Notes: generated from the sequence alone by a model not told the origin. Positions 20,787 through 64,000 are shown, counted from the stretch's first letter. The stretch is DNA of 64,000 bases from Chloroflexota bacterium (GCA_040902225.1 JBBDXT010000004.1:320376-384375); one strand, 5' to 3'. Made by a program: numbers and translations.

Positions 20787-20863
20787 GGTGGCCTTAGCTC
20801 AACCGGCAGAGCATCGGATTGTGGATCCGAAGGTTACGGGTTCGACCCCCGTAGGCCACCCCA
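20787..20863 (+). tRNA. tRNA-His (anticodon GTG) with genomically encoded G-1 and 3' CCA
   Basis: The gene folds as a cloverleaf. The acceptor stem is GTGGCCT/AGGCCAC, the D arm GCTC..GAGC, the anticodon stem TCGGA/TCCGA with loop TTGTGGA (anticodon GTG), and the T arm ACGGG-TTCGACC-CCCGT. An extra G lies 5' of the acceptor, the discriminator is C, and CCA follows. Confidence 0.85.
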
Positions 20864-33130: not shown

Positions 33131-34009
33131 ATGAAGGTAGGAATCATCGTTCCCCAGGGCTGGACCGGCGAATACACCGGCTGGGACGCCGGCCGCGCGT
33201 GGGATCGGACTACGGCGGTGGCCCGGCAGGCCGAAGCGCTCGGATTCGAGTCGCTGTGGCTTTTCGACCATTTCCACACGGTCCCAAAACCCCGGCAGGA
33301 CATCACCTTCGAGTCGTTCACCACGCTGGCCGGCCTGGCGACCACCACAAAGCGCGCGCGGCTTGGCCAACTGGTCAATTGCGCGACCTACCGCAATCCA
33401 GCGCTAGTGGCGAAGATGATTTCGACGTTGGACACAATGTCAGGCGGTCGTATGGAACTCGGCCTGGGCGCGGGCTGGAAAGAGGACGAGTTTCGGGCGT
33501 ATGGGTACGGCTTCCCTTCGCTGGCTGAGCGCCATGCCCGGCTGGAAGATGCTCTGATCATTGCCAACCGGATGTTTCACGACGAGGAGGCCGTCTACAG
33601 GGGCAGCACCGCATCAGTCAACGGCGCGATCAATGTTCCGAAGCCGCAGCAAAGGCCCCGAATCCCCATCGTCGTGGGGGGCAATGGCCGGAACGTGACG
33701 TGGCGGTTGGCAGCGCGCCACGCCGATGAACTCAATCTTGATAACGTTCCCGTCCACGAAATCGAGGATGCCCTGGCGGTCGTGGCCGAGCGCTGCGCGG
33801 AAGTCGGCCGCGATGCTGCGACCCTCCCGGTCTCGGTCCATATCTGGTGGGAAACGCTGGTGAATCAGGACCCGGTCGAGCTACTGAGAGGATATCGCGA
33901 GGCGGGTGTCAGCCGGGTGATGGCCTTGGTCCGCGAGTCAGCTACCACCGACGATGCTCTCGTGCGATTGCGGGAGCAGGCCGGCGATGCAGGCGCTGAG
34001 TTTGATTGA
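33131..34009 (+). CDS. LLM class F420-dependent oxidoreductase (luciferase-like monooxygenase fold)
   Basis: The sequence MKVGIIVPQGW...FESLWLFDHFHTVP...LGLGAGWKEDEF is the typical LLM/F420-dependent family pattern. Confidence 0.8.
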   Translation: MKVGIIVPQGWTGEYTGWDAGRAWDRTTAVARQAEALGFESLWLFDHFHTVPKPRQDITFESFTTLAGLATTTKRARLGQLVNCATYRNPALVAKMISTLDTMSGGRMELGLGAGWKEDEFRAYGYGFPSLAERHARLEDALIIANRMFHDEEAVYRGSTASVNGAINVPKPQQRPRIPIVVGGNGRNVTWRLAARHADELNLDNVPVHEIEDALAVVAERCAEVGRDAATLPVSVHIWWETLVNQDPVELLRGYREAGVSRVMALVRESATTDDALVRLREQAGDAGAEFD

Positions 34010-34550: not shown

Positions 34551-37500
34551 GCTACCCCGATGCGCTGTGGCACGAGCGTGGAACCCGTACCAAATGTGCC
34601 CTAGTTATCCGCTGTCGAGAAGCCCTCTCGCTTCGTCAGGACTGCCGCCGTGACAGACGGATTGCGCAGCTTGGCGTAGCGGCTCAGGTGGGAATCCACG
34701 AGGTGGAGCCTGGCACTGAGGCCAAGAGGGCCAGGGCAACCGCCTCGTCAGTCGTCATGCGGCGGCCCTCGGCCCACGCCGAGTCGAGAGCGGTCGCATC
34801 GAGCGCGTTGCGGAGCTGGCCAATCGCGGCGTCGTATTCGGCCCGTTCGTCCGAGAGCATCACTATTTCCGCGACCTCGCGGATCGCCTCCGCCGCACCC
34901 AACAGGCGGGCCGCACGTACGAAGTCGTGCTTTGCTGTCGCGAGGAACCCGAAGCACTCCAGCTGGTGGGCGATCGCGCCGCGGTTGCCCGCGTGCTGCC
35001 AGCCGCGCAGCGTTTCCCGGTACAGCTCCTCGGCCTCGTCGATCTCCCCGCCACGGCGCAGCGTGTGAGCGAGTTCGCTGCGCGTCCTGAGAACGGACCT
35101 GCGGTCGCCCATCTCCTCGTAACCCGCGATCGCCCTGCCCAGCCACTCTCGTGCCTCGGCCAACCGACCGGTGAAACCGCTCTGATCGCCGCGACTCCAT
35201 GCGATGAAGGCGATCGCACGCGGATTCCGGGAGCGATCGGCCGCCTCGGACGCCCTGAGTAGCCGGGCTTCGGCGCCCGCCATGTCACCATCGTCTGTCA
35301 TCTGAGAATAGGCGAGGCTTGCCTCGATCGTGGCAAGCGCTAACCAGTCGTGCCTCGACTCGGCCAGCCGGACCATCTCCTCTTCCAACTCGCGCGCCTC
35401 GCTCAACCGCCCTGAGAAGGACCTCGTCGTCGCCAGCGCAGCGAGCGCCTCTGACAGCGCCTCGTCGTCTTCGGCTCGGCGAGCCAGCGCCACGGCTTCC
35501 TCGGCCCATCGCCCGCCTGCGGCGTACTCCGCACCCCACGACGATGCATTCGCGGCGGAGGCGAACACCCTCGCGACTAGGATCGTTCGCTCGCGAGCGG
35601 CGGATGGCGCAGCAGGCGGCAGCCTCAATGCGAGCTCGGCCGCCTTGGCCATCCACTCGATGGCCTCGGAGCCAATCGATCGGGATCTCCAGTAGGCGGC
35701 CAGCGCCACCGACAGGCGCAGCGCCGCTTCTGGGTCCGCCTCGAATGACCACTCCAGCGCGGTGCGCAGGTTCTCCGCCTCGGAGTCCAGGCGGCTCAGC
35801 CATGCCACCATGTCCGGGCCCCGGAGTGCAGGCCCGGCCTCGCGTGCGAGGTCCAGGTAGAACGCAAGGTGACGGCCGCGGATCGCCAACACCTCGCCAG
35901 CGCTTGCGAGCCGGTCGCCGGCGTACTGCCGAATCGTCTCGAGGAGCCGATAGCGCGTGGGTCCACCCTGGTCGGCGACAACCAGCGAGCGGTCGACCAG
36001 GCGGCCGAGGCCGTCGAGCGTCTCGAGCAGCGTGTTCGCCTCGTCGTGACGCGCGCCGCCATCGTCTTCGTGCAGCCCCGCCACGGCCGCCGCCGCCTCC
36101 AACGTGCACCCCCCCGCGAAGACTGAGAGGCGCCGCAGGAACTGGCGGTCCGTCTCGGTCAGCAGGTCCCAGCTCCAGTCGACGAGCGCCTGCAGCGTCT
36201 GCTGGCGGGGTACGGCGCTGCGGCGGCCGCCGGTCAGGAGCCGGAACCGGTCGCCGAGCCCCCGCGCGATCTCCTGCGCCGAAAGATGAGTGACCCGCGC
36301 TGCGGCGAGCTCGATCGCGAGCGGGATGCCGTCAAGGCGACGGCAGATCTCGACCACTGCGGGCGCGTTGGCAGGCGTCAGCAAAAAGGACGAGAGCACC
36401 GCGCTCGCTCGATCGACGAACAGGCGGACCGCGTCAGCTGCGGCCGTCTCCTCGAACCAGCCCGCCGCCGGCTCGTCATGATCCTCGCCCTCGCCGATGG
36501 CGCCAGGTACGACCAGCGACGGGACCTGGAAGACCGTCTCCCCGGACACTCCGAGCGCCTCACGGCTCGACGCAAGCACGGCCAACGATGGACAGCTGGC
36601 GAGCAGGCGATCGACCAGATCCGCGGCCGCGCCGATGACATGCTCGCAGTTGTCGAGGAGCAGCACGAGGGACTTCGAGCGGAGAAAATCAACCAGCGTG
36701 TCGAGGACCGCCCGTCCGGGCTCGCCAGGCACTCCGAGCGCCCGGGCGACCTCGCTGACGATGAGATCGGGGCTGGGGACCGGGGCCAGCTCGACCAGCC
36801 AGACGCCGTCCGCCCGGCGCCCCAGGAGCTCAGCCGCAAGCTGGAGCATGAGTCTCGTTTTGCCCGTGCCGCCGGTTCCGATCAGGGTCACCAGGCGATG
36901 CGCCTCCGCCAGGGCGGCAAGATCCGCGAGCTCCCGTTCGCGGCCGACGAAGGAGGTCAGCTGCGCGGGGATATTGGTCAGCTCCACCCCGACGGACCGA
37001 AGCCCCGGAAACTCGGCTCGCAGGCCGGGGCCGATGAGCTGATGCAGTTGTGCCGGCGCATCGAAGTCTTTCAGGCGAAACTCTCCGAGCTCACGGAGCG
37101 CCAGCTCCTCGGGCAGCCGATCCCCCAGGACCGCAGCCATCGCCTGCGAGACCAGCACCTGGCCGCCATGGCCGGCTGCCGCGATGCGGGCGGCGCGGTG
37201 GACCTCGAGCCCAACGTAACCGCCGTCTCGGCGCGTGGCTTCGCCCACGTGGAGACCCATCCGCACGCGGAGATCGGCGCCGGGCGGCCATTCCGCGCCG
37301 GTCAGCGCGCGCTGGCCCTCCGCGGCGGCGCGCAACGCGTGGAGCGGGCTGCCGAACGCCACGAAGAACGAGTCGCCCTCGGTGCCAACCTCGAATCCAG
37401 CGTGGCGGGCAAACGCCTCGCGCAGGATCGACCGATGGCGCTCGAGAAGCGCCTCGTAGGCATCGGGCAGGCTGCCGGCGAGGCGCGTCGAGCCCTCGAT

Positions 37501-37860
37501 GTCGGTGAACAGGAACGCGACCGTTCCTGTCGGCGCCTCGGGCGGTCGTGGCTTCCGGCGCTGGTGAGGCGACTTGGCTGGCATGCGACCGATGGTACCG
37601 CTGCCCACAGTCGACCGAAACGGGCTTGGACCCAGCTCGGCCACGGCCCATGAGGTTTGGCGGCCAGGTCGCCGCGGGTTAGGATAGGAGCGGTGGGAGT
37701 GGCCGCCTGCGTGGCTTAGCTCCGCTGGCGGGATTCCGAAGATCGGCGCCAAACACGCTCTCCGAGCGCTGTGGTCAAGGCTATTTCCACTTTTCCGCTC
37801 TGTTTGAGCGTGAAATGTGCGCCCGTAGCTCAGCGGACAGAGCGGGTGGCTTCGGACCAT
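34551..37860. mobile_element. decayed integrative element C (single cargo gene: cyclase/NB-ARC/TPR STAND NTPase; integrase reduced to a roughly 20-codon remnant); its tRNA 5' half completes the intact tRNA-Arg
   Basis: The right end (37645-37818) is homologous to the ends of elements A and B and contains remnant integrase N-terminal codons, now read through into the cargo ORF. It is bounded on the left by the tRNA half copy at 34509 and on the right by the intact tRNA. Confidence 0.65.
34684..37584 (-). CDS. class III adenylate/guanylate cyclase domain fused to an NB-ARC/AAA+ (STAND) ATPase and C-terminal TPR-like repeats
   Basis: The true start is the ATG near 37584 (MPAKSPHQRR...). The cyclase motifs FLFTDIEGST, GDSFFVAF, RMGLHVGE and VHRAARI are present, followed by a P-loop LIGTGGTGKTRLM and Walker B LLLDNCEH, then about 500 aa of helical repeats. 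No C-terminal HTH is evident. Confidence 0.8.
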   Translation of the reverse strand: MPAKSPHQRRKPRPPEAPTGTVAFLFTDIEGSTRLAGSLPDAYEALLERHRSILREAFARHAGFEVGTEGDSFFVAFGSPLHALRAAAEGQRALTGAEWPPGADLRVRMGLHVGEATRRDGGYVGLEVHRAARIAAAGHGGQVLVSQAMAAVLGDRLPEELALRELGEFRLKDFDAPAQLHQLIGPGLRAEFPGLRSVGVELTNIPAQLTSFVGRERELADLAALAEAHRLVTLIGTGGTGKTRLMLQLAAELLGRRADGVWLVELAPVPSPDLIVSEVARALGVPGEPGRAVLDTLVDFLRSKSLVLLLDNCEHVIGAAADLVDRLLASCPSLAVLASSREALGVSGETVFQVPSLVVPGAIGEGEDHDEPAAGWFEETAAADAVRLFVDRASAVLSSFLLTPANAPAVVEICRRLDGIPLAIELAAARVTHLSAQEIARGLGDRFRLLTGGRRSAVPRQQTLQALVDWSWDLLTETDRQFLRRLSVFAGGCTLEAAAAVAGLHEDDGGARHDEANTLLETLDGLGRLVDRSLVVADQGGPTRYRLLETIRQYAGDRLASAGEVLAIRGRHLAFYLDLAREAGPALRGPDMVAWLSRLDSEAENLRTALEWSFEADPEAALRLSVALAAYWRSRSIGSEAIEWMAKAAELALRLPPAAPSAARERTILVARVFASAANASSWGAEYAAGGRWAEEAVALARRAEDDEALSEALAALATTRSFSGRLSEARELEEEMVRLAESRHDWLALATIEASLAYSQMTDDGDMAGAEARLLRASEAADRSRNPRAIAFIAWSRGDQSGFTGRLAEAREWLGRAIAGYEEMGDRRSVLRTRSELAHTLRRGGEIDEAEELYRETLRGWQHAGNRGAIAHQLECFGFLATAKHDFVRAARLLGAAEAIREVAEIVMLSDERAEYDAAIGQLRNALDATALDSAWAEGRRMTTDEAVALALLASVPGSTSWIPT

Positions 37861-37894
37861 CAGGTCGCGGGTTCGATTCCTGCCGGGCGCGCCA
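37819..37894 (+). tRNA. tRNA-Arg (anticodon TCG), intact
   Basis: The acceptor stem GCGCCCG/CGGGCGC, D arm GCTC-AGCGGACA-GAGC, anticodon stem GGTGG/CCATC with loop CTTCGGA (U33, anticodon UCG, G37), T arm GCGGG-TTCGATT-CCTGC, discriminator G and encoded CCA are all identifiable. Confidence 0.8.
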
Positions 37895-59673: not shown

Positions 59674-60378
59674 CTACGCCTCCCAGGTCTCCCCGGGCTC
59701 GAGGGCGACCACCTGCGCATCGGTCGCCGCCTGGAGCTGGGCAGGGGTGCCGGCCAGGGCCGGGAAGGTGGCGTAATGCACCGGGATGACCACCTTGGCG
59801 CCGATCAGCGCCACCGCTCGACCGGCATCGGCCGGACCCATGGTGTAGTGCCCGCCGATCGGCAGGACGGTGATGGTCGGGGCCCATCGGTCCTTCACCA
59901 GCGCCATGTCGCCGAACAGGTCGGTGTCGCCGGTGTGGTAGACGTGAGTGCCGTCCTCGAACTCGAGCAGCCAGCCCCAACAACCCATCTCGCGGGTCGC
60001 CTCGGCCTCGCGGCCTGTGACGGTCACACCGCCGGTGTGCTCGGCATGGACCATGGTGAGCCCAATCCCTGCCGCCTCGAATCGGCCGCCCTTGTTCATC
60101 CCCACCGCCTCCACTCCGCGGCTGGCGAGGTAGATGCTCATCTCGTGCGAGCAGACCACCGTGCCGCCGCGCGCGGCCAACTCAACGACGTCGGCGGCGT
60201 CGTTGCCGACATGGTCGAAATGCCCGTGGGTCGGGGCGATGACGTCCACCTGCCATGGCTCCGGAGGCGCGACATAGGTGGGCGCGCCGCTCCATCGGTC
60301 CACCCACAGCCACTTGTCGCCTGGGGAGCGATACAGGATCCCGCCGTGTCCCAGGCGGGTGATGCGCAGCGTCGCCAT
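59674..60378 (-). CDS. MBL-fold metallo-hydrolase
   Basis: The HxHxDH motif THGHFDHVGN, plus downstream His/Asp ligands (HTGDTDLF, VIPVHY), is present, and the 234-aa length fits. Confidence 0.8.
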   Translation of the reverse strand: MATLRITRLGHGGILYRSPGDKWLWVDRWSGAPTYVAPPEPWQVDVIAPTHGHFDHVGNDAADVVELAARGGTVVCSHEMSIYLASRGVEAVGMNKGGRFEAAGIGLTMVHAEHTGGVTVTGREAEATREMGCWGWLLEFEDGTHVYHTGDTDLFGDMALVKDRWAPTITVLPIGGHYTMGPADAGRAVALIGAKVVIPVHYATFPALAGTPAQLQAATDAQVVALEPGETWEA

Positions 60379-60427
60379 GCGTGCCTCCTGCGGTGCGTGC
60401 CGTGAATGCTAGCGCGGGTGAAGTCGC

Positions 60428-60577
60428 TTACGCCCGCTGTGCGTAAAGGGGAAGAAGGACGTGCTGCGCCCGCAACTGCAGGCCCCCATTGGCGGCTATG
60501 CACATGAGGCGTGCACCAGGACCAAGAAGGGCCTTCTCGGCGATCCTCGTTAGTTGTTATGCACGCTGGGTGTAAGC
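60428..60577. repeat. 150-bp element with about 19-bp terminal inverted repeats (TTACGCCCGCTGTGCGTAA ... TTATGCACGCTGGGTGTAAG), copy 1
   Basis: This copy is homologous over its whole length to the copy at 63674-63823. The termini are inverted repeats that are also internally palindromic (TTACGC...GCGTAA). It lies about 50 bp upstream of the MBL hydrolase start. Confidence 0.5.
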
Positions 60578-60880
60578 GCATGTCCTTGCCAGGCCACCGC
60601 CAGGTGCCAGCCCTGGAGGCGGCATGCAGCTGCATCGCGCCGGCCACCCCCATGACGCCGTCGCCCAGCCACTTGACCGGACGACCACCATGCTGGGACC
60701 GATGCGCGCTGCACCAATCGAGCCAGTGAGGCTCGGGATCAAGCCCGCGCGCCGCACGTCGCCGGCCGAAAACCGGTCGCCGTCGCCGGGCGAGAGGATC
60801 CCCAGCTCCACCTGCCGACTGACTTCGTCGAGAGTGATGCCCGCGCGCTCCGCGACCTCGTCTCGGGAATGGGTGGTCAC
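60557..60880 (-). CDS. possible small HTH protein (N-terminal MTTHSRDEVAERAGITLDEVSRQVELGIL); the C-terminal half looks non-coding
   Basis: Only the first roughly 45 codons look protein-like (MerR/XRE-like HTH). The ORF overlaps the repeat element and the spurious 5' extension of the cyclase ORF. Confidence 0.25.
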   Translation of the reverse strand: MTTHSRDEVAERAGITLDEVSRQVELGILSPGDGDRFSAGDVRRAGLIPSLTGSIGAARIGPSMVVVRSSGWATASWGWPARCSCMPPPGLAPGGGLARTCAYTQRA

Positions 60881-60917
60881 CTTCGTACTCTACCCCGGGG
60901 CGATACCATCAGCGTGC

Positions 60918-61736
60918 ATGCCGAAGCTGAGTACCGGAGGGCGAAAGGGGCTGCGCGACAGCGCCTTCGCCTACGTTGATCCCCAGGGTCGTCGGCGACT
61001 CCCGATCCACGATGAGAGCCACGTTCGCAACGCCCTCTCCCGATTCAATCAAGTGGTCTTCGAGGACGACGCGGCGCGCAATCGCGCCCGCACCAGGCTG
61101 CTGAATGCCGCGAAGCGCTACGGCATCGTGCCGGTCGGCTTCGTCACCGGTCAGCTGCGCGCCCACACTCCGCGCGAGCTGCCGACCGGCGCGCTGACCT
61201 TCCTGATGACCGATATCGAGGAATCCACCGCGCTGCTCCTCAAGCTCGAGGACCGATTCTCCCGCCTCCTGGCTGACACGCGACGCATCTATCGGACGGC
61301 CATCAAACACGCCGGCGGCTGGGAGGTCGACGCCCGGGCCGATGAGTTCTTTGCGGTCTTCCGCCAGTCCTCGGCCGCGATCGACGCCGCGCTCAGCATC
61401 CAGCGGAGCCTCCGCGACCACGCGTGGCCTGCCGGCGTGGTGGTCCGAGCGCGGATGGGGATCCACGGCGGTCGTCCCACACTCTCGGAGGGCAGCTACG
61501 TCGGGGTGGCGGTGCACACCGTGGCGCGGATCAGTGCACTGGCGCATGGCGGCCAGATCCTCGTCTCGCACAGCGCGCTCGCGGCGGAGCTGCCAGCCGA
61601 GATCACGGTCATCGAGCTGGGTGAGCACCACCTGCGCGGAATCGGGGGCCACGCGCTCTTCCAGGTGTCCGCGGCCGACCTACCCGGCGAGTTTCCGCCC
61701 ATCGTGACAACCACTATCCCGCCCGATTCCCGCTGA
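60918..61736 (+). CDS. class III adenylate/guanylate cyclase domain protein with a roughly 80-aa N-terminal domain (PIHDESHVRNALSRFNQV motif)
   Basis: The start is an internal ATG (MPKLSTGGRKGL) in ORF 60624..61736. The cyclase motifs LTFLMTDIEESTAL, DEFFAVF, RMGIHGG and VHTVARI are present. Confidence 0.75.
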   Translation: MPKLSTGGRKGLRDSAFAYVDPQGRRRLPIHDESHVRNALSRFNQVVFEDDAARNRARTRLLNAAKRYGIVPVGFVTGQLRAHTPRELPTGALTFLMTDIEESTALLLKLEDRFSRLLADTRRIYRTAIKHAGGWEVDARADEFFAVFRQSSAAIDAALSIQRSLRDHAWPAGVVVRARMGIHGGRPTLSEGSYVGVAVHTVARISALAHGGQILVSHSALAAELPAEITVIELGEHHLRGIGGHALFQVSAADLPGEFPPIVTTTIPPDSR

Positions 61737-61926
61737 GCGGGACTAACCGCCAACGAGCCGCCCGGCAGGCGCGTTTTGCCGCGCCACCTTGATCGTCGTT
61801 CCGCGGGGCGGGCATGAGAGCCAAGGAGCGATCCAATCTCGCGGCTGCTTGCTCGATAGTCCCCCTGGCCGGGAATGGCGCGGCGCGCCACGGCCCTGAG
61901 GCCGTGACGCGCACCGCGGACGACAG

Positions 61927-63039
61927 CTAGGGAACAGTCACCGTCAGCGTCCACGGGCCGTCGAGCTGGACCCGCTCGCCGTTGCTCATCCGGTAGCTGA
62001 GCTCGGCGAATTCAAGCTCCCACGTTCCGGCCACTGCATCGGTGCCGGCCACCGTCATCAGCTCGTTCACGTCGCCCATCGGTCCTTGCTGCTCTGGGTC
62101 GGTGGTGACGTGACGGCCCGCGTGGAAGCTGTAAGCCGTCCCGTCCTGTCGAACTGACCCACCGCCAACCCAACCCCAATCGAGGATGGCCGCGCCGGCC
62201 ACCTGCAGGGCCATCGTGGCCTTGATCATGGTCGGGCTGACGCGGAGCTCCGTGAGCGTGAGGGTGCCCTGTCCAACGGTCGCCTGGGCATCGGTCGACA
62301 CGATCGCGCCGATGGGCTCGGGCAGCTGGAACCGGAACTGCCAGGTCCCGTCAATCATGCCGGTCGGAGGCGGGCTGACGCACTCCGGCTCGGTCGCGCC
62401 AACGGTGCACTGTCCGGGGACGAACCCGCCGCCGTGGTACCCGACCGAAGTAAAGGTCAGCACCCAGGTCCCTGCCGACGGAGCTACGACTCCCTCCCAG
62501 GTCTGGACGACGGCGGACAGGCCGGTCTCATCCATCCCCATCCCGCCTTGGCTGGTGGCCCACTGCTCAGATGATCGTCCCGTCGGGTCCTGGATTTCGA
62601 CCATCCACTGGAGCGCAGGGGGATCCTCGACGGCGGTGGTAGGCACCTCCAGGCCGGCCACCGTGAATCCGACCAGCACCTGGTTGAGGTCCGCATAGGC
62701 ACGCTCGACGTTGATCGTCACTCCGGCATCGGTCGCTGAGAGGTCGAGGCGCTCTGCCTCGTCCCAGGCGGTCTGCCAACCGGGTTGGCCAGATGACTCG
62801 ATGATCCAATCGAGGAGGCCCAATGCCCCGACCACCGCGCCGGTGAGCAGCACGAACGCCGCCAGCAGCGCCACTGGATGGAGGATGAGTCGCGGGGAGG
62901 ACAGGCCGCGGCGAGGCAGAGCCACCGGGCGAGCTGCGATCTGGGCGACCCGCTGGTCCAGCCAGCGCAGGCCGTCCTCCGGGGGCTCCACGGCGACTGC
63001 CCGCAGCAGCCGGGTCTCGATCTCTTCACGCGTGGTCAT
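61927..63039 (-). CDS. putative anti-sigma factor / membrane protein with a large extracytoplasmic domain
   Basis: The gene is immediately downstream of, and overlaps, the ECF sigma gene. A cytoplasmic N-terminus (MTTREEIETRLL) is followed by a single TM (ILHPVALLAAFVLLTGAVVGALGLL) and a roughly 280-aa exported domain. Confidence 0.55.
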   Translation of the reverse strand: MTTREEIETRLLRAVAVEPPEDGLRWLDQRVAQIAARPVALPRRGLSSPRLILHPVALLAAFVLLTGAVVGALGLLDWIIESSGQPGWQTAWDEAERLDLSATDAGVTINVERAYADLNQVLVGFTVAGLEVPTTAVEDPPALQWMVEIQDPTGRSSEQWATSQGGMGMDETGLSAVVQTWEGVVAPSAGTWVLTFTSVGYHGGGFVPGQCTVGATEPECVSPPPTGMIDGTWQFRFQLPEPIGAIVSTDAQATVGQGTLTLTELRVSPTMIKATMALQVAGAAILDWGWVGGGSVRQDGTAYSFHAGRHVTTDPEQQGPMGDVNELMTVAGTDAVAGTWELEFAELSYRMSNGERVQLDGPWTLTVTVP

Positions 63040-63580
63040 CAAAGGCCTCCCGCAGCGCGGCCAGGCCACGCTCAATCTGCTTCTGTACTGCGCCTTCGCG
63101 CTTGCCGATGACGAAGCCGATCTCCCGTGCCGTCAAACCGCCGGCATACCGCAGGAGCAGGGCCTCGCCGTGATCACCGGGTAGTCGGGCAACGAGATCC
63201 AGCATCTCGACGCGCTCCTGGTCGAGGCGATCGGCCTCGACAGCGGTCCGGCGGAGTTGGGTATCGGCGCCGGCCAGGTCGACCGTCGGTCGGTGACGGC
63301 GATGCGCATCAATGGCGACGTTGCGCGCGATGCGCAGCAGCCAGGCCTGCACTCCACCGTCGCGCCTGCGGAATCGGCCCAGGTTGGCGAACGCCCGCTC
63401 GAAGGTCGTGGCGGCGAGGTCCAGGGCATCCGCGTCGCTGTGCGCCCGGGCGCGCAGGTATCGGTACACGGACAGCCGGTGCCGCTCGTAGAGCAGACCG
63501 AAAGCGGATGGTTCCAGCCGCTCGGCCTCGATCTCGACGGGCGGGCCCAGGTCCTCGTTCACGAGCGGTACCCTCAACAC
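63026..63580 (-). CDS. RNA polymerase sigma-70 factor, ECF subfamily
   Basis: Region 2 (FGLLYERHRLSVYRYL...TFERAFANL) and region 4 (LLLRYAGGLTAREIGFVIGKREGAVQKQIERGLAAL) motifs are present, and the 184-aa length fits. Confidence 0.85.
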   Translation of the reverse strand: MLRVPLVNEDLGPPVEIEAERLEPSAFGLLYERHRLSVYRYLRARAHSDADALDLAATTFERAFANLGRFRRRDGGVQAWLLRIARNVAIDAHRRHRPTVDLAGADTQLRRTAVEADRLDQERVEMLDLVARLPGDHGEALLLRYAGGLTAREIGFVIGKREGAVQKQIERGLAALREAFDDHA

Positions 63581-63673
63581 GGCCTTCCTCCGGCTCTGGC
63601 AGCGTAATTGAAGCTGCCGTCACCTAGGACAACGAGCCGGAAGCCCCGAACCCGACAAACGCCGGCATGGATT

Positions 63674-63823
63674 TACGCCCAGTGTGCGTAACGGCCAGGC
63701 ACGGATCCATTACGGCCACCTCGGACCCTCAAGCTGGCTGTCTTGAACGCCCCCTGCACACCGGCGACAAGAAGAGGGCGCTTCGCTACCGAAGTTGGTC
63801 GTTGTGCTCGCTGGGCGTACACC
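63674..63823. repeat. 150-bp element with terminal inverted repeats (TTACGCCCAGTGTGCGTAA ... TTGTGCTCGCTGGGCGTACA), copy 2
   Basis: This copy is homologous to the element at 60428-60577 and lies about 95 bp upstream of the ECF sigma start codon. Confidence 0.5.
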
Positions 63824-63915
63824 GGACAACCCGATTAGGCACCACGCCCATTCCGGACATGACGACGCCGTGCCTGGCAGGTCGGCACGGCGCGCGTCAG
63901 CTAAAGGGAAGGAAA

Positions 63916-64000
63916 GTTACCGGGTCATGCCCGCGTGCACGGGCTGCGGAACTTCCCACTTGGTCAGCTGATCGGAGAGGACGCGCTTCGCCTCGTCGAT
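63916..64000 (-). CDS. C-terminal 27 codons of a gene extending beyond the window end
   Basis: The reverse strand reads ...IDEAKRVLSDQLTKWEVPQPVHAGMTR then stop. This is too short to assign a function. Confidence 0.3.

Follow-up and report, generated by a model that had tools for sequence, protein, structure and literature searches.

What are the 150-bp sequences with inverted-repeat ends that occur in a 64,000-nt stretch of DNA from a Chloroflexota bacterium (the whole stretch is referred to as the window)? An initial annotation described two copies, each just upstream of a minus-strand gene, and proposed a MITE-like mobile element, a structured 5′-UTR or cis-regulatory RNA, or a paired operator. 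We conclude with moderate confidence that they are ~150-nt non-coding composite palindromic repeats, members of a Limnocylindria family that resembles REP dimers or trimers (REPIN- or BIME-like) in architecture and most likely spread by way of hairpins.

Both copies, termed units A and B, are present at or within 1 nt of the positions first assigned to them (63673–63822 for B). The count of two does not hold, since a third unit, C, lies between them (Table 1). Full-length homology of A and B is borne out by the covariance model R1, built from related contigs, which matches both end to end. Direct comparison carries the claim only weakly: aligned without gaps, the two are 53% identical overall and 43% identical across the interior, and BLASTN aligns the ends only. 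In global alignment, 1 in 1000 shuffles and 3 in 1000 randomly drawn pieces of the window score as high as the interiors do. The shared end motifs are confirmed, as the left boxes TTACGCCCGCTGTGCGTAA and TTACGCCCAGTGTGCGTAA differ only in the central 2 nt, and this motif occurs five times in the window with up to three mismatches (0.05 expected). The right boxes are TTATGCACGCTGGGTGTAA and TTGTGCTCGCTGGGCGTAC, and the spacing from left to right box is exactly 129 nt in both units. The ends are indeed inverted repeats, over 19 nt in A and over 24 nt with 79% complementarity in B. The palindrome TTACGC-N7-GCGTAA noted within them requires a change of register, as the family-register boxes at both ends of A and at the left end of B sit 2 nt off.

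Unit C was also picked up independently of R1 through its box and tail, ATTCCCGC-TGA-GCGGGACT-AACCGCCAAC. The three units fall within 3.4 kb, and the R1 scan leaves the rest of the window (1–60000) empty. Together with a unit beyond the window, this genome carries four units in ~71 kb sampled, all inside ~7.5 kb and of two box types (TTACGC vs ATTCCCGC).

Table 1. Positions of the repeat units, their parts, orthologues, and the direct repeat at site B (window coordinates unless a contig is named; parts in canonical order).
Feature	Position	Strand	Remarks
Unit A	60426–60577	−	three-box unit, full; R1 107.7 bits (minus), 28.1 bits (plus)
Unit A box1	60577–60559	−	
Unit A tail1	60558–60549	−	
Unit A short spacer	60548–60527	−	
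Unit A tail′1	60526–60517	−	
Unit A box2	60516–60498	−	
Unit A tail2	60497–60488	−	
Unit A long spacer	60487–60455	−	
Unit A tail′2	60454–60445	−	
Unit A box3	60444–60426	−	
Unit B	63671–63822	−	three-box unit, full; R1 110.4 bits (minus), 42.3 bits (plus)
Unit B box1	63822–63804	−	
Unit B tail1	63803–63794	−	
Unit B tail′1	63771–63762	−	
Unit B box2	63761–63743	−	degenerate
Unit B tail2	63742–63733	−	
Unit B tail′2	63699–63690	−	
Unit B box3	63689–63671	−	
Unit C	61726–61876	−	three-box unit, ATTCCCGC box type; R1 40.3 bits, E 4.8e-10
Unit C box1	61876–61858	−	
Unit C box3	61744–61726	−	
Fourth unit, same genome	L001:3502–3664		~3.7 kb outside the window; R1 66 bits
Unit A orthologues	L104:2929–3081, L101:9792–9944, L033:3770–3910, L023:143–293		same site
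Unit C orthologues	L033:2760–2911, L098:7708–7859, L101:8822–8972, L102:5576–5727		cyclase 3′ end
Direct repeat, left copy CGGGTTGTCCGGTG	63823–63836	−	imperfect, ~14 nt; abuts unit B, overlapping it by 3 nt
Direct repeat, right copy CGTTTGTCGGGTTC	~63645–63658		imperfect, ~14 nt; 12 nt off the other end of unit B

Each unit is a noncoding, intergenic sequence of ~150 nt with three palindromic boxes of 19 nt, which are laid out as 8+3+8 with the inner arms CGC/GCG. Conserved 10-nt tails, AACGGCCAAG and CTTGGCCGTT, adjoin the boxes, the middle box being tailed on both sides, and two poorly conserved spacers of ~22 and ~33 nt lie between them. A box and its tail together make up a REP-like module. 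The outer two modules are inverted, and box1 and tail1 pair with tail′2 and box3 to form a ~29-nt terminal inverted repeat or closing stem, the strongest feature of the unit. Conservation declines from the inner arms (1.1–1.4 bits per column) and tails (0.7–1.1) through the outer arms to the spacers (0.4–0.5); small motifs are kept in both spacers in the alignments. Beside the stem, the consensus reads CGTT/AACG (CTTGGCcGTT in tail′2 and AaCGgcCAAG in tail1), and the outer flanks of the boxes carry no conserved tag. The box arms vary among units, even inside one genome, yet remain complementary; two box types also occur in the relative L033.

Pairing and covariation were computed on 20 units under the long-stem model. 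Paired cells amount to 75%, compared to 64% in shuffles and 32–42% with the partners slid, and the covariation score is 0.375 compared to 0.18 in shuffles. The two terminal helices are 86% and 79% paired, and compensatory changes occur in six of the eight pairs of the outermost, which is the 86% helix. The best arm pairing joins box1 to box3 (6.5/8) and tail1 to tail′2 (7.25/10), while pairing within a box reaches only 5.5–5.75/8. In the fold, an 8-bp outer helix leads through a 3 × 3 internal loop into a long helix, which ends in a variable terminal part. The terminal stem is present in the minimum-free-energy folds and counts 24 pairs on the plus strand of unit B. Folding of the window copies does not exceed that of shuffles, with z values of −0.65 to −0.93 under DNA parameters and of −1.2 to −3.2 for RNA folds of A and B on either strand.

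The initial annotation held that a mere pair of copies genome-wide, without covariation or flanking duplications, would favor a local duplication or a pair of regulator binding sites; in the sampled DNA, more units occur both in the contigs of this genome and in relatives. Across 0.49 Mb of related Limnocylindria contigs, R1 finds ~22 distinct units at full length, for which a common alignment and consensus can be obtained, and a scan for box plus tail yields 17 matches, ~12 of them recognizable family members, and none in shuffles. No units were found in 68 kb around the pyruvate dehydrogenase E1 gene of three relatives, nor in another 20 kb of related DNA, L106 included. The units form a family that is restricted to one subclade of the soil Chloroflexota, Candidatus Limnocylindria, and apparently hitherto undescribed. 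Orientation is identical at all 10 sites with a clear strand call, and units are kept at orthologous sites among genomes whose proteins are 82–94% identical. The sites are polymorphic: site A holds three boxes in L101, two in L102 and L103, one in L029, and none in L020, L030, and L031, and two close relatives, L104 and L101, have no unit at site B. For retention at orthologous sites, a functional or simply immobile element is at least as good an explanation as a mobile element.

The placement upstream of minus-strand genes is correct for both copies first described. Unit A lies 47 nt from the start (60378) of a metallo-β-lactamase-fold (MBL) hydrolase gene and is bordered on its other side by a truncated MerR-like/cyclase pseudogene remnant. 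Unit B lies 90 nt from the start (63580) of an ECF sigma factor gene, between the promoter-like block of that gene and the 3′ end of an ACT-domain gene. Unit C lies between convergent genes: the plus-strand DUF6582/cyclase gene stops at the TGA in its box3 loop (61734–61736), and on the minus strand the anti-sigma gene has its stop (61927) 50 nt from the other end of the unit. In L033, a stop codon likewise falls inside a box loop. Altogether, the gaps holding units are convergent, divergent, and co-directional, some units are antisense to flanking co-directional genes, and the neighboring genes are functionally unrelated. Gene content between the units also varies in relatives, in which the sigma/anti-sigma, the ACT, and the MerR-cyclase module are variably present.

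These mixed contexts, the absence of a G-U strand bias, an Rfam match, or a general target-site duplication, and the variation in presence and box number disfavor both the 5′-UTR RNA and the operator pair. A structured RNA, either a cis leader or a small RNA with a long terminal stem, possibly a three-way junction, and hairpins with YCGAW/GAAAT loops, would agree with the strong covariation, which is compatible with such a junction (73% of its cells pair, and 36 of its pairs show compensatory change), and with the small motifs in both spacers. Moreover, the canonical strand is the transcribed strand in 6 of 8 co-directional gaps, and mismatches in A and B become G-U on the plus strand. However, this plus strand is antisense to the MBL and ECF sigma genes, and the seven seed units have no G-U excess on either strand (G-U 19–25 vs A-C 30–34). 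As the unit is a DNA palindrome, both strands fold alike. The window copies do not surpass shuffles, and units are found in convergent gaps and overlapping a stop codon. The units have no match to a promoter or terminator, and Rfam gives none, whether at the gathering score or with E values of up to 5 admitted. We therefore consider an RNA quite unlikely. Operators of a palindrome-binding regulator for the MBL hydrolase, the ECF sigma factor, and their neighbors are most improbable, even though the boxes have dyad symmetry over 19 bp, three intergenic regions in a row at one locus hold units, and in several relatives the proximal box of unit A keeps a fixed distance (~17–25 nt) to a GCTAGCAT motif that is conserved upstream of the MBL gene. 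The outer arms differ within one genome (TTACGC vs ATTCCCGC, ATGTGCGC vs ATGTACGC), so that one protein could not read all of them, complementarity between boxes exceeds symmetry within them, and the asymmetric tails are the best-conserved parts. Further, some units are placed at gene 3′ ends in convergent gaps, the promoters of many MBL and sigma orthologues are boxless, and unit B is absent in close relatives with the same sigma gene. In our reading, the units do not specifically regulate the MBL hydrolase gene or the ECF sigma gene.

The MITE-like candidate comes nearest of the original three: a repeat family with ~29-nt terminal inverted repeats and polymorphism in presence and box number speaks for it, while the lack of a general target-site duplication or detectable transposase and the high divergence within a genome do not. 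In its stricter form, a MITE derived from a DDE-type IS, the terminal repeats would be transposase-binding ends, the middle box an internal copy of that site, and the target would be duplicated. The genuine terminal inverted repeats, the ~150-bp size without coding capacity, and the presence or absence of unit B would suit this origin, and at site B an imperfect ~14-nt direct repeat (Table 1) is matched in L104 by a single copy, CGGGTTGTCGGGTTC. Judged from these sequences, the repeat may be a target duplication or a deletion footprint. It is imperfect, offset by 12 nt at one end, and limited to site B rather than a general family property: the best direct repeats flanking 23 units score 4–7, within chance for random window positions (mean 5.5, 95th percentile 8). 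A DDE origin is quite improbable also because the copies of one genome have diverged far too much to have transposed recently, the uniform orientation is unexpected, and the sampled loci show no IS with box and tail ends. Ends that change sequence yet stay complementary would, moreover, not be accepted by a DDE transposase that recognizes a specific sequence. Very unlikely, too, are attC-like hairpin recombination sites in an integrase-less, CALIN-like cluster that bounds the gene modules of a variable locus. Like attC sites, which are 57–141 nt long and belong to integrons known in Chloroflexi (Cury et al, 2016, PMC4889954), the units are imperfect palindromes conserved in structure and variable in sequence, clustered (four in ~7.5 kb) and co-oriented between genes, with modules between them that vary among relatives. 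Their folded layout of helix, internal loop, helix, and variable tip resembles the R box, unpaired spacer, L box, and variable terminal structure of attC (PMC4889954), and about half of the units have AAC and GTT triplets at symmetric positions. In contrast to attC, the canonical R″/R′ pair RYYYAAC…GTTRRRY, 50–200 nt apart, occurs in 0 of 40 unit strands, and complementarity runs ~20 nt outside the triplets, beyond the would-be R boxes, where attC needs none. The genes between units are not cassette-like, being large, with their own signals, in both orientations, and syntenic across species; B and C are not chimeric, contrary to cassette insertion, L104 and L101 carry the sigma module without unit B, and no integrase or other tyrosine recombinase was seen in the examined loci. 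Rather unlikely is also that the units are functional, locus-specific, co-oriented structured DNA or RNA elements, selected at the same intergenic sites across Limnocylindria, and not selfish relics. They may then act as hairpins for recombination or insulation, with a protein that reads structure plus tail, and partition the ACT, ECF sigma/anti-sigma, cyclase, and MBL neighborhood; this would make them integron-like or boundary elements of a new kind, distinguished by the three-box architecture.

On our analysis, the units look most like an old, decayed REP-dimer or REPIN-like repeat. As in a REPIN (PMC3337134), a short imperfect palindrome with a conserved flank is combined with an unconserved spacer, and complementarity of box1 and tail1 to tail′2 and box3 makes a hairpin-forming doublet. 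Against this reading, copies are neither abundant nor evenly spread in the sampled DNA, boxes within a genome are not near-identical (53% for A vs B, two types), and they lack both a GTAG and a CGTC tag. Tight clustering and co-orientation are unusual for a REP-like repeat. A tblastn search of 0.52 Mb for a RAYT or IS200-like gene, with two queries, gave nothing below E 0.4, and among 30 proteins scanned against Pfam, flanking ones and others, there was no transposase. This is a weak negative; since no such partner was found, membership in the REPIN-RAYT system is not established. We propose that the units arose and spread as single-stranded DNA hairpins. The handling enzyme would read a stem of any sequence together with the adjacent conserved single-stranded motif and would be of the HUH/Y1 type (RAYT, IS200/IS605-like), which would explain the variable yet complementary arms, conserved tails, lack of target duplications, and uniform orientation. 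The present copies are old and probably immobile, and their complementarity may be kept by selection for the hairpin, which could serve, for instance, to end transcripts or as an insulator, or else by correction of quasipalindromes through template switching.

Several bacterial repeats share parts of this design. Correia/NEMIS in Neisseria, ERIC/IRU in enterobacteria, and BOX in pneumococcus are non-coding intergenic elements of 100–160 bp with terminal inverted repeats and a long stem; they can affect neighboring transcripts, and BOX elements are modular in build. They occur as near-identical copies in high number, Correia with TA target duplications, whereas the units described here are diverged, without target duplication, and have ends that are themselves palindromic. 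With the REPINs of REP-RAYT systems, as in Pseudomonas fluorescens SBW25 (Bertels & Rainey, 2011; PMC3337134, PMC3116915), the units share an extragenic location, inverted partners around a spacer of fixed length classes that itself forms a hairpin, folding of the whole element into one long hairpin, long flank-palindrome-flank palindromes, and the lack of target duplication. They differ in having three boxes instead of two, and in being diverged into several box types where REPIN populations are highly homogeneous, with tens to hundreds of near-identical REPs dispersed over the genome; they are also apparently low-copy and clustered, without a GTAG motif or, in the sampled DNA, a RAYT, which in REPIN systems is a single-copy gene between the same REPs. 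The GTAG- and CGTC-tagged REP families, which form head-to-head dimers (Di Nocera et al, 2013, PMC3733652), offer a further parallel, as do E. coli BIMEs. The tagged families have variable stems of 8–9 bp, a short conserved tag at the stem (CGTT/AACG here, one base from CGTC), tagged ends that face each other across 20–100 bp spacers, some with complementary ends, and clusters. CGTC families exist without a dedicated transposase, and GTAG REPs occur in the Chloroflexi species Thermomicrobium roseum (PMC3733652). In the units, by contrast, CGTT is part of a 10-nt conserved tail and not a CGTC or GTAG tag, the loop has 3 nt instead of the 4–5 nt of CGTC families (PMC3733652), the middle box is tagged on both sides, and three boxes are set at fixed spacers of ~22 and ~33 nt. 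Finally, REP termini supply stop codons (PMC3733652), which is matched here by the stop codon in the box loop.

The window has a G+C content of 68.5%, and its proteins are 87-97% identical to proteins named 'Chloroflexi bacterium' or 'Candidatus Limnocylindria bacterium' by their sources. Logan contig L001 (SRR27977660) is identical to window positions 62121-64000 and continues for a further 7.3 kb; for the left side, an exact-protein look-up yielded no record that would extend the window. The two copies of an intergenic element noted in the initial annotation, A (60428-60577) and B (63673-63822), are present as described, with ends that are inverted repeats. Their left boxes read TTACGCCC(GC/AG)TGTGCGTAA, their right boxes TTATGCACGCTGGGTGTAA in A and TTGTGCTCGCTGGGCGTAC in B, and the box-to-box spacing is exactly 129 nt in both. 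Five matches to the box motif in the window, against 0.05 expected, are far above chance. In direct comparison, BLASTN aligns A and B at the ends only, and the interiors are only weakly alike, with 43% ungapped identity and an alignment score equalled by 1 of 1000 shuffles. Copy A precedes a metallo-beta-lactamase-fold (MBL) hydrolase gene by 47 nt and copy B an ECF sigma/anti-sigma pair by 90 nt, both genes being on the minus strand.

Rfam at gathering thresholds matched only two tRNAs and none of the units; at E up to 5 over 60300-64000, two chance matches appeared, both away from the units. The exact left-box pattern gave 16 single matches in unrelated phyla, which is chance level, among 185,579 species genomes (a set without the source genome), and a two-box gapped pattern gave 0 matches in JGI metagenomes; the box sequences of relatives differ. 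For comparison, 80 orthologous MBL loci were taken from JGI metagenomes. The sequence ahead of the MBL gene varies greatly among them, and several relatives carry related boxes there, for example three copies of GTACGCCCAGCGTACGTAACGGCC in one contig, L033. Position-weight-matrix and hairpin-plus-tail scans found boxes with very different arms (ATGTGCGC, AGGAGCGC, TTTGCGC, ATTCCCGC), each followed by the same tail, about AACGGCCAAG; the box-plus-tail scan yielded 17 matches versus 0 in shuffled sequence. Across 0.49 Mb of Limnocylindria loci, a covariance model built from nine units identifies about 22 distinct units of full length. It recovers A, B, and a third unit, C, in the window and a fourth unit of the same genome on L001, but no further unit in the window, even with filters off; one marginal match inside a luciferase-like monooxygenase ORF is due to chance. 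In viral contigs, the box-plus-tail pattern occurs at 27 loci, none of which is a real unit under the model. A full-text literature search on Limnocylindria repeats returned no paper with a title or abstract on elements of this kind.

Locations of the repeat units and neighbouring features in the window, on L001 (contig of the same genome), and on contigs of relatives (other L numbers)
Feature	Location	Strand	Model score or context
Unit A	window 60426-60577	-	107.7 bits
Unit B	window 63671-63822	-	110.4 bits
Unit C	window 61726-61876	-	40.3 bits, E 4.8e-10; convergent-gene gap
Fourth unit of the window's genome	L001:3502-3664		covariance model match
Unit	L033:2760-2911		convergent-gene gap
Units	L019:764; L102:5576		convergent-gene gaps
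Units	L033:3770; L101:9792; L100:5056		divergent-gene gaps
Two-box units	L102:5941-6080; L103:9865-10004		MAG contigs
Chance model match	window 33622-33727		luciferase-like monooxygenase ORF
Remnant gene	window 60580-60880 (-); 60138-60653		between unit A and divergent cyclase gene
MerR-like ORF of remnant	window 60880-60557		
Motif GCGCTAGCAT	window 60390-60405	-	~30 nt upstream of MBL ribosome-binding site
ECF upstream block	window 63585-63660	-	just upstream of ECF sigma start
Orthologous ECF upstream blocks	L101:7071-7140; L104:812-880; L105:3470-3530		
Intrinsic terminators	L101:6952-6995; L104:735-780		downstream of ACT-domain gene
Hairpin CCGTGCC-N9-GGCACGG	window 63868-63897		same place as these terminators
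Toxin-antitoxin-like pair	L001:5895-6742		~0.6-1.5 kb past the window's right end
1058-aa ORF (as listed)	window 34684-37860	-	
tRNA gene	window 37819-37891	+	
Second tRNA gene	window 20788-20860		

All units share the order box1, tail1, short spacer, tail'1, box2, tail2, long spacer, tail'2, box3. Box1 comprises 19 nt (8+3+8), the short spacer ~22 nt, and the long spacer ~33 nt, resulting in a total of ~150 nt. In a consensus of 19 units, the inner arms CGC/GCG are best conserved (1.1-1.4 bits per column), followed by the tails (0.7-1.1), the outer arms (0.6-0.9), and the least conserved spacers (0.4-0.5). The short spacer contains a YCGAW motif and the long spacer GAAAT/CAAAA, the latter often at the tip of a small hairpin. 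The box arms vary between units, even within one genome, yet stay complementary: A and B belong to the TTACGC/GTACGC type, C and the fourth unit on L001 to the ATTCCCGC type, while L033 has both ATGTGCGC and ATGTACGC boxes. Tail plus box also resembles a sigma-54 promoter, although with a spacing that falls short by one base.

The pairing pattern reveals how the boxes relate to each other. In an arm-pair matrix of 20 units, complementarity is highest between box1 and box3 (a1:a'3, 6.5/8; a3:a'1, 6.55/8) and likewise between tail1 and tail'2 (7.25/10), and lowest within boxes (5.5-5.75/8). In ATTCCC-type units, box1 reads ATTCCC...GGGACT and box3 AGTCCC...GGGAAT, so that box3 reverse-complements box1 rather than duplicating it. 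Since box1 pairs best with box3 and tail1 with tail'2, and box3 is the reverse complement of box1, the unit has a true terminal inverted repeat of ~29 nt. A reading of the boxes as TTACGC-N7-GCGTAA operators or simple local hairpins was rejected, because pairing between boxes is better than within them. A CRISPR-like mini-array, resembled in the hairpin-plus-tail look and the 61/72-nt spacing, was rejected in view of the inverted outer modules, 'spacers' that hold inverted tails, and repeat sequences that differ within a unit.

Three pairing schemes were counted on the 20-unit alignment. A long stem plus middle hairpin pairs 75.1% of cells (covariation score 0.375), two tandem hairpins closed by an 8-bp stem pair 73.1% (0.373), and five local hairpins pair 70.4% (0.323), all exceeding shuffles (62-64%) and slid controls (29-43%). 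The schemes are not decisively separable because the boxes of one unit resemble each other. In the long-stem scheme and likewise in the tandem-hairpin scheme, pairing reaches 86% in the outermost helix, where compensatory changes occur at 6 of the 8 pairs. Folding is very strong in well-preserved units (z = -8.1 for the L033 unit starting at 2760), whereas the window copies overall fold no better than shuffles, yet keep the terminal stem. Wobble pairs show no strand preference (G-U 19-25 versus A-C 30-34); those of copies A and B happen to fall on the plus strand.

The three window units fill three consecutive intergenic gaps at 60.4-63.8 kb, while the first 60 kb has ~15 other gaps of 150 nt or more, all without a unit. 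Units are likewise absent from L106 and, in three relatives, from 68 kb surrounding the pyruvate dehydrogenase E1 gene, a block that is not independent evidence because it is syntenic with the window. Relative to the MBL gene, orientation is uniform at all 10 sites whose two strands differ by 12 bits or more; random orientation would give this a probability of ~0.002, and several of these sites were model seeds oriented by spacer order. None of the sampled loci showed a transposase or recombinase gene. Besides convergent and divergent gaps, units occupy co-directional gaps on either strand relative to transcription. Their neighbours are unrelated and encode an MFS transporter, FAD oxidase, PadR, aspartyl protease, ACT protein, MBL hydrolases, ATP-grasp protein, esterase, polyketide cyclase, glycogen-debranching enzyme, BBE oxidase, and diacylglycerol kinase.

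At orthologous sites, both occupancy and box number differ. Site A, upstream of the MBL gene, holds three boxes in the window, L104, L101, L033, and L023, two in L102 and L103 after a clean box-to-box deletion, one in L029, and none in L020, L030, L031, and L038, the last of which has a unit elsewhere on the contig. In the two-box units, box2 and box3 are fused and the long spacer is cleanly deleted, which shows that boxes within a unit have undergone recombination or slippage. Site B, upstream of the sigma gene, is empty in L101 and in L104 (sigma 94% identical, same gene order). At the empty site, L104 has one copy of CGGGTTGTCGGGTTC; in the window, CGGGTTGTCCGGTG abuts unit B and CGTTTGTCGGGTTC lies 12 nt past its other end, a direct repeat that could be a target duplication or a deletion trace.

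Units can be retained at the same intergenic positions across 6-18% protein divergence while their arms undergo compensatory change. At site A, the window and L033 have A-T as the position-5/position-4 pair of the outer helix, and L023 and L101 have G-C. In unit C, the TGA in the box3 loop is the stop codon of the DUF6582/cyclase gene, and a unit in L033 shows the same arrangement with ATGTGCGC arms instead of ATTCCCGC. As both share the loop stop codon despite different arms, the unit at this 3' site is an old one whose arms have undergone compensatory replacement.

The initial annotation had offered a structured leader RNA and a pair of regulator operators as candidates; both gene-specific readings fail. 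Convergent and antisense contexts, the symmetry of the strands, and missing promoter or terminator signals contradict a leader; diverse boxes in a single genome, boxes at gene 3' ends, and close relatives without the unit contradict an operator pair. A MITE-like mobile element had also been suggested; target-site duplications are not a general feature, the direct repeats beside 23 units scoring no higher than those at random positions. Published REP dimers and REPINs, palindromic repeats in inverted doublets, combine a palindrome with conserved flanks, inverted partners, and hairpin-forming spacers of set length and free sequence; long 'flank-palindrome-flank' palindromes, clusters, and repeat-supplied stop codons are also described (PMC3337134; PMC3733652). 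The unit architecture matches these features point by point. HUH/Y1 enzymes read a stem of arbitrary sequence together with a conserved adjacent motif in single-stranded DNA, as established for the E. coli RAYT and the IS200/IS605 TnpA. An enzyme of this type could read stem and tail of the unit, and single-strand transposition would leave no target duplications and produce uniform orientation within a replichore. Because of the matching architecture, the stem-and-motif logic, the lack of target duplications, and the uniform orientation, we favour an old REP-dimer/REPIN-like element, mobilized by such a putative mechanism.

In contrast to REPINs, no RAYT (the Y1/HUH transposase of REPs) was found in the sampled loci, the sampled units are clustered rather than dispersed, and the copies have diverged instead of forming a homogeneous population. 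They carry the tag CGTT/AACG in place of the GTAG or CGTC of tagged REPs. Three features are atypical for REPs, namely the tight clustering, the uniform orientation, and the long persistence at orthologous sites with compensatory change; they would suit a locus-specific role, either as insulator/terminator structure or as hairpin recombination sites of an integron-like platform. Since the units lack canonical attC motifs and the genes separating them do not resemble cassettes, we give that reading a low probability. The Limnocylindria (formerly Ellin6529) are soil bacteria that are abundant and essentially uncultured; REP-dimer-like architecture is represented among them by this family, in a distinctive three-box, fixed-length form. 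The family provides a useful natural case for the open question whether REPs reflect selection on the hairpin (transcript ends, insulation), a domesticated single-strand transposase, or template-switch repair. The units also account for local assembly and annotation oddities, such as a stop codon inside a hairpin and spurious ORFs across units, and warn against taking them for gene-specific regulators.

Several features of the surroundings merit description. Between unit A and the divergent cyclase gene lies the remnant of a gene, so that ORFs across unit A are spurious. The remnant consists of a MerR-like N-terminus and, in another frame, a C-terminal cyclase fragment (GVAGAMQLHAAS...), which flank a ~0.7-1 kb deletion; L098 carries an intact 406-aa Ad_Cy_reg + Guanylate_cyc gene, and L038 and L042 longer versions. 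The motif GCGCTAGCAT is kept in most orthologous MBL loci, with or without a unit, and could represent a -10-like element or, in some relatives, the upstream gene's stop codon. At the sigma gene, the block TTGTCGGGTTC...GCTCGTT(G/C)TCCTAGGTGACGGCAGCTTC is nearly invariant in relatives and probably contains the autoregulated promoter and leader of the ECF gene; the insertion point of unit B coincides exactly with the upstream edge of this block. The terminator of relatives is canonical (GTCCGGCGACCTCTTCGGAGGCGCCGGAC, then a T-rich run), while the hairpin at this place in the window differs, lacks a T-run, and is followed by unit B. On L001, an HTH_3 (Xre-type) gene overlaps a DUF2204/DUF6036-like nucleotidyltransferase gene, a toxin-antitoxin-like pair that fits the idea of a variable, accessory neighbourhood. 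Farther away, a cyclase domain is joined to a STAND/AAA ATPase and TPR repeats in the 1058-aa ORF; as its listed 5' end overlaps a tRNA gene, its true start is probably further downstream.
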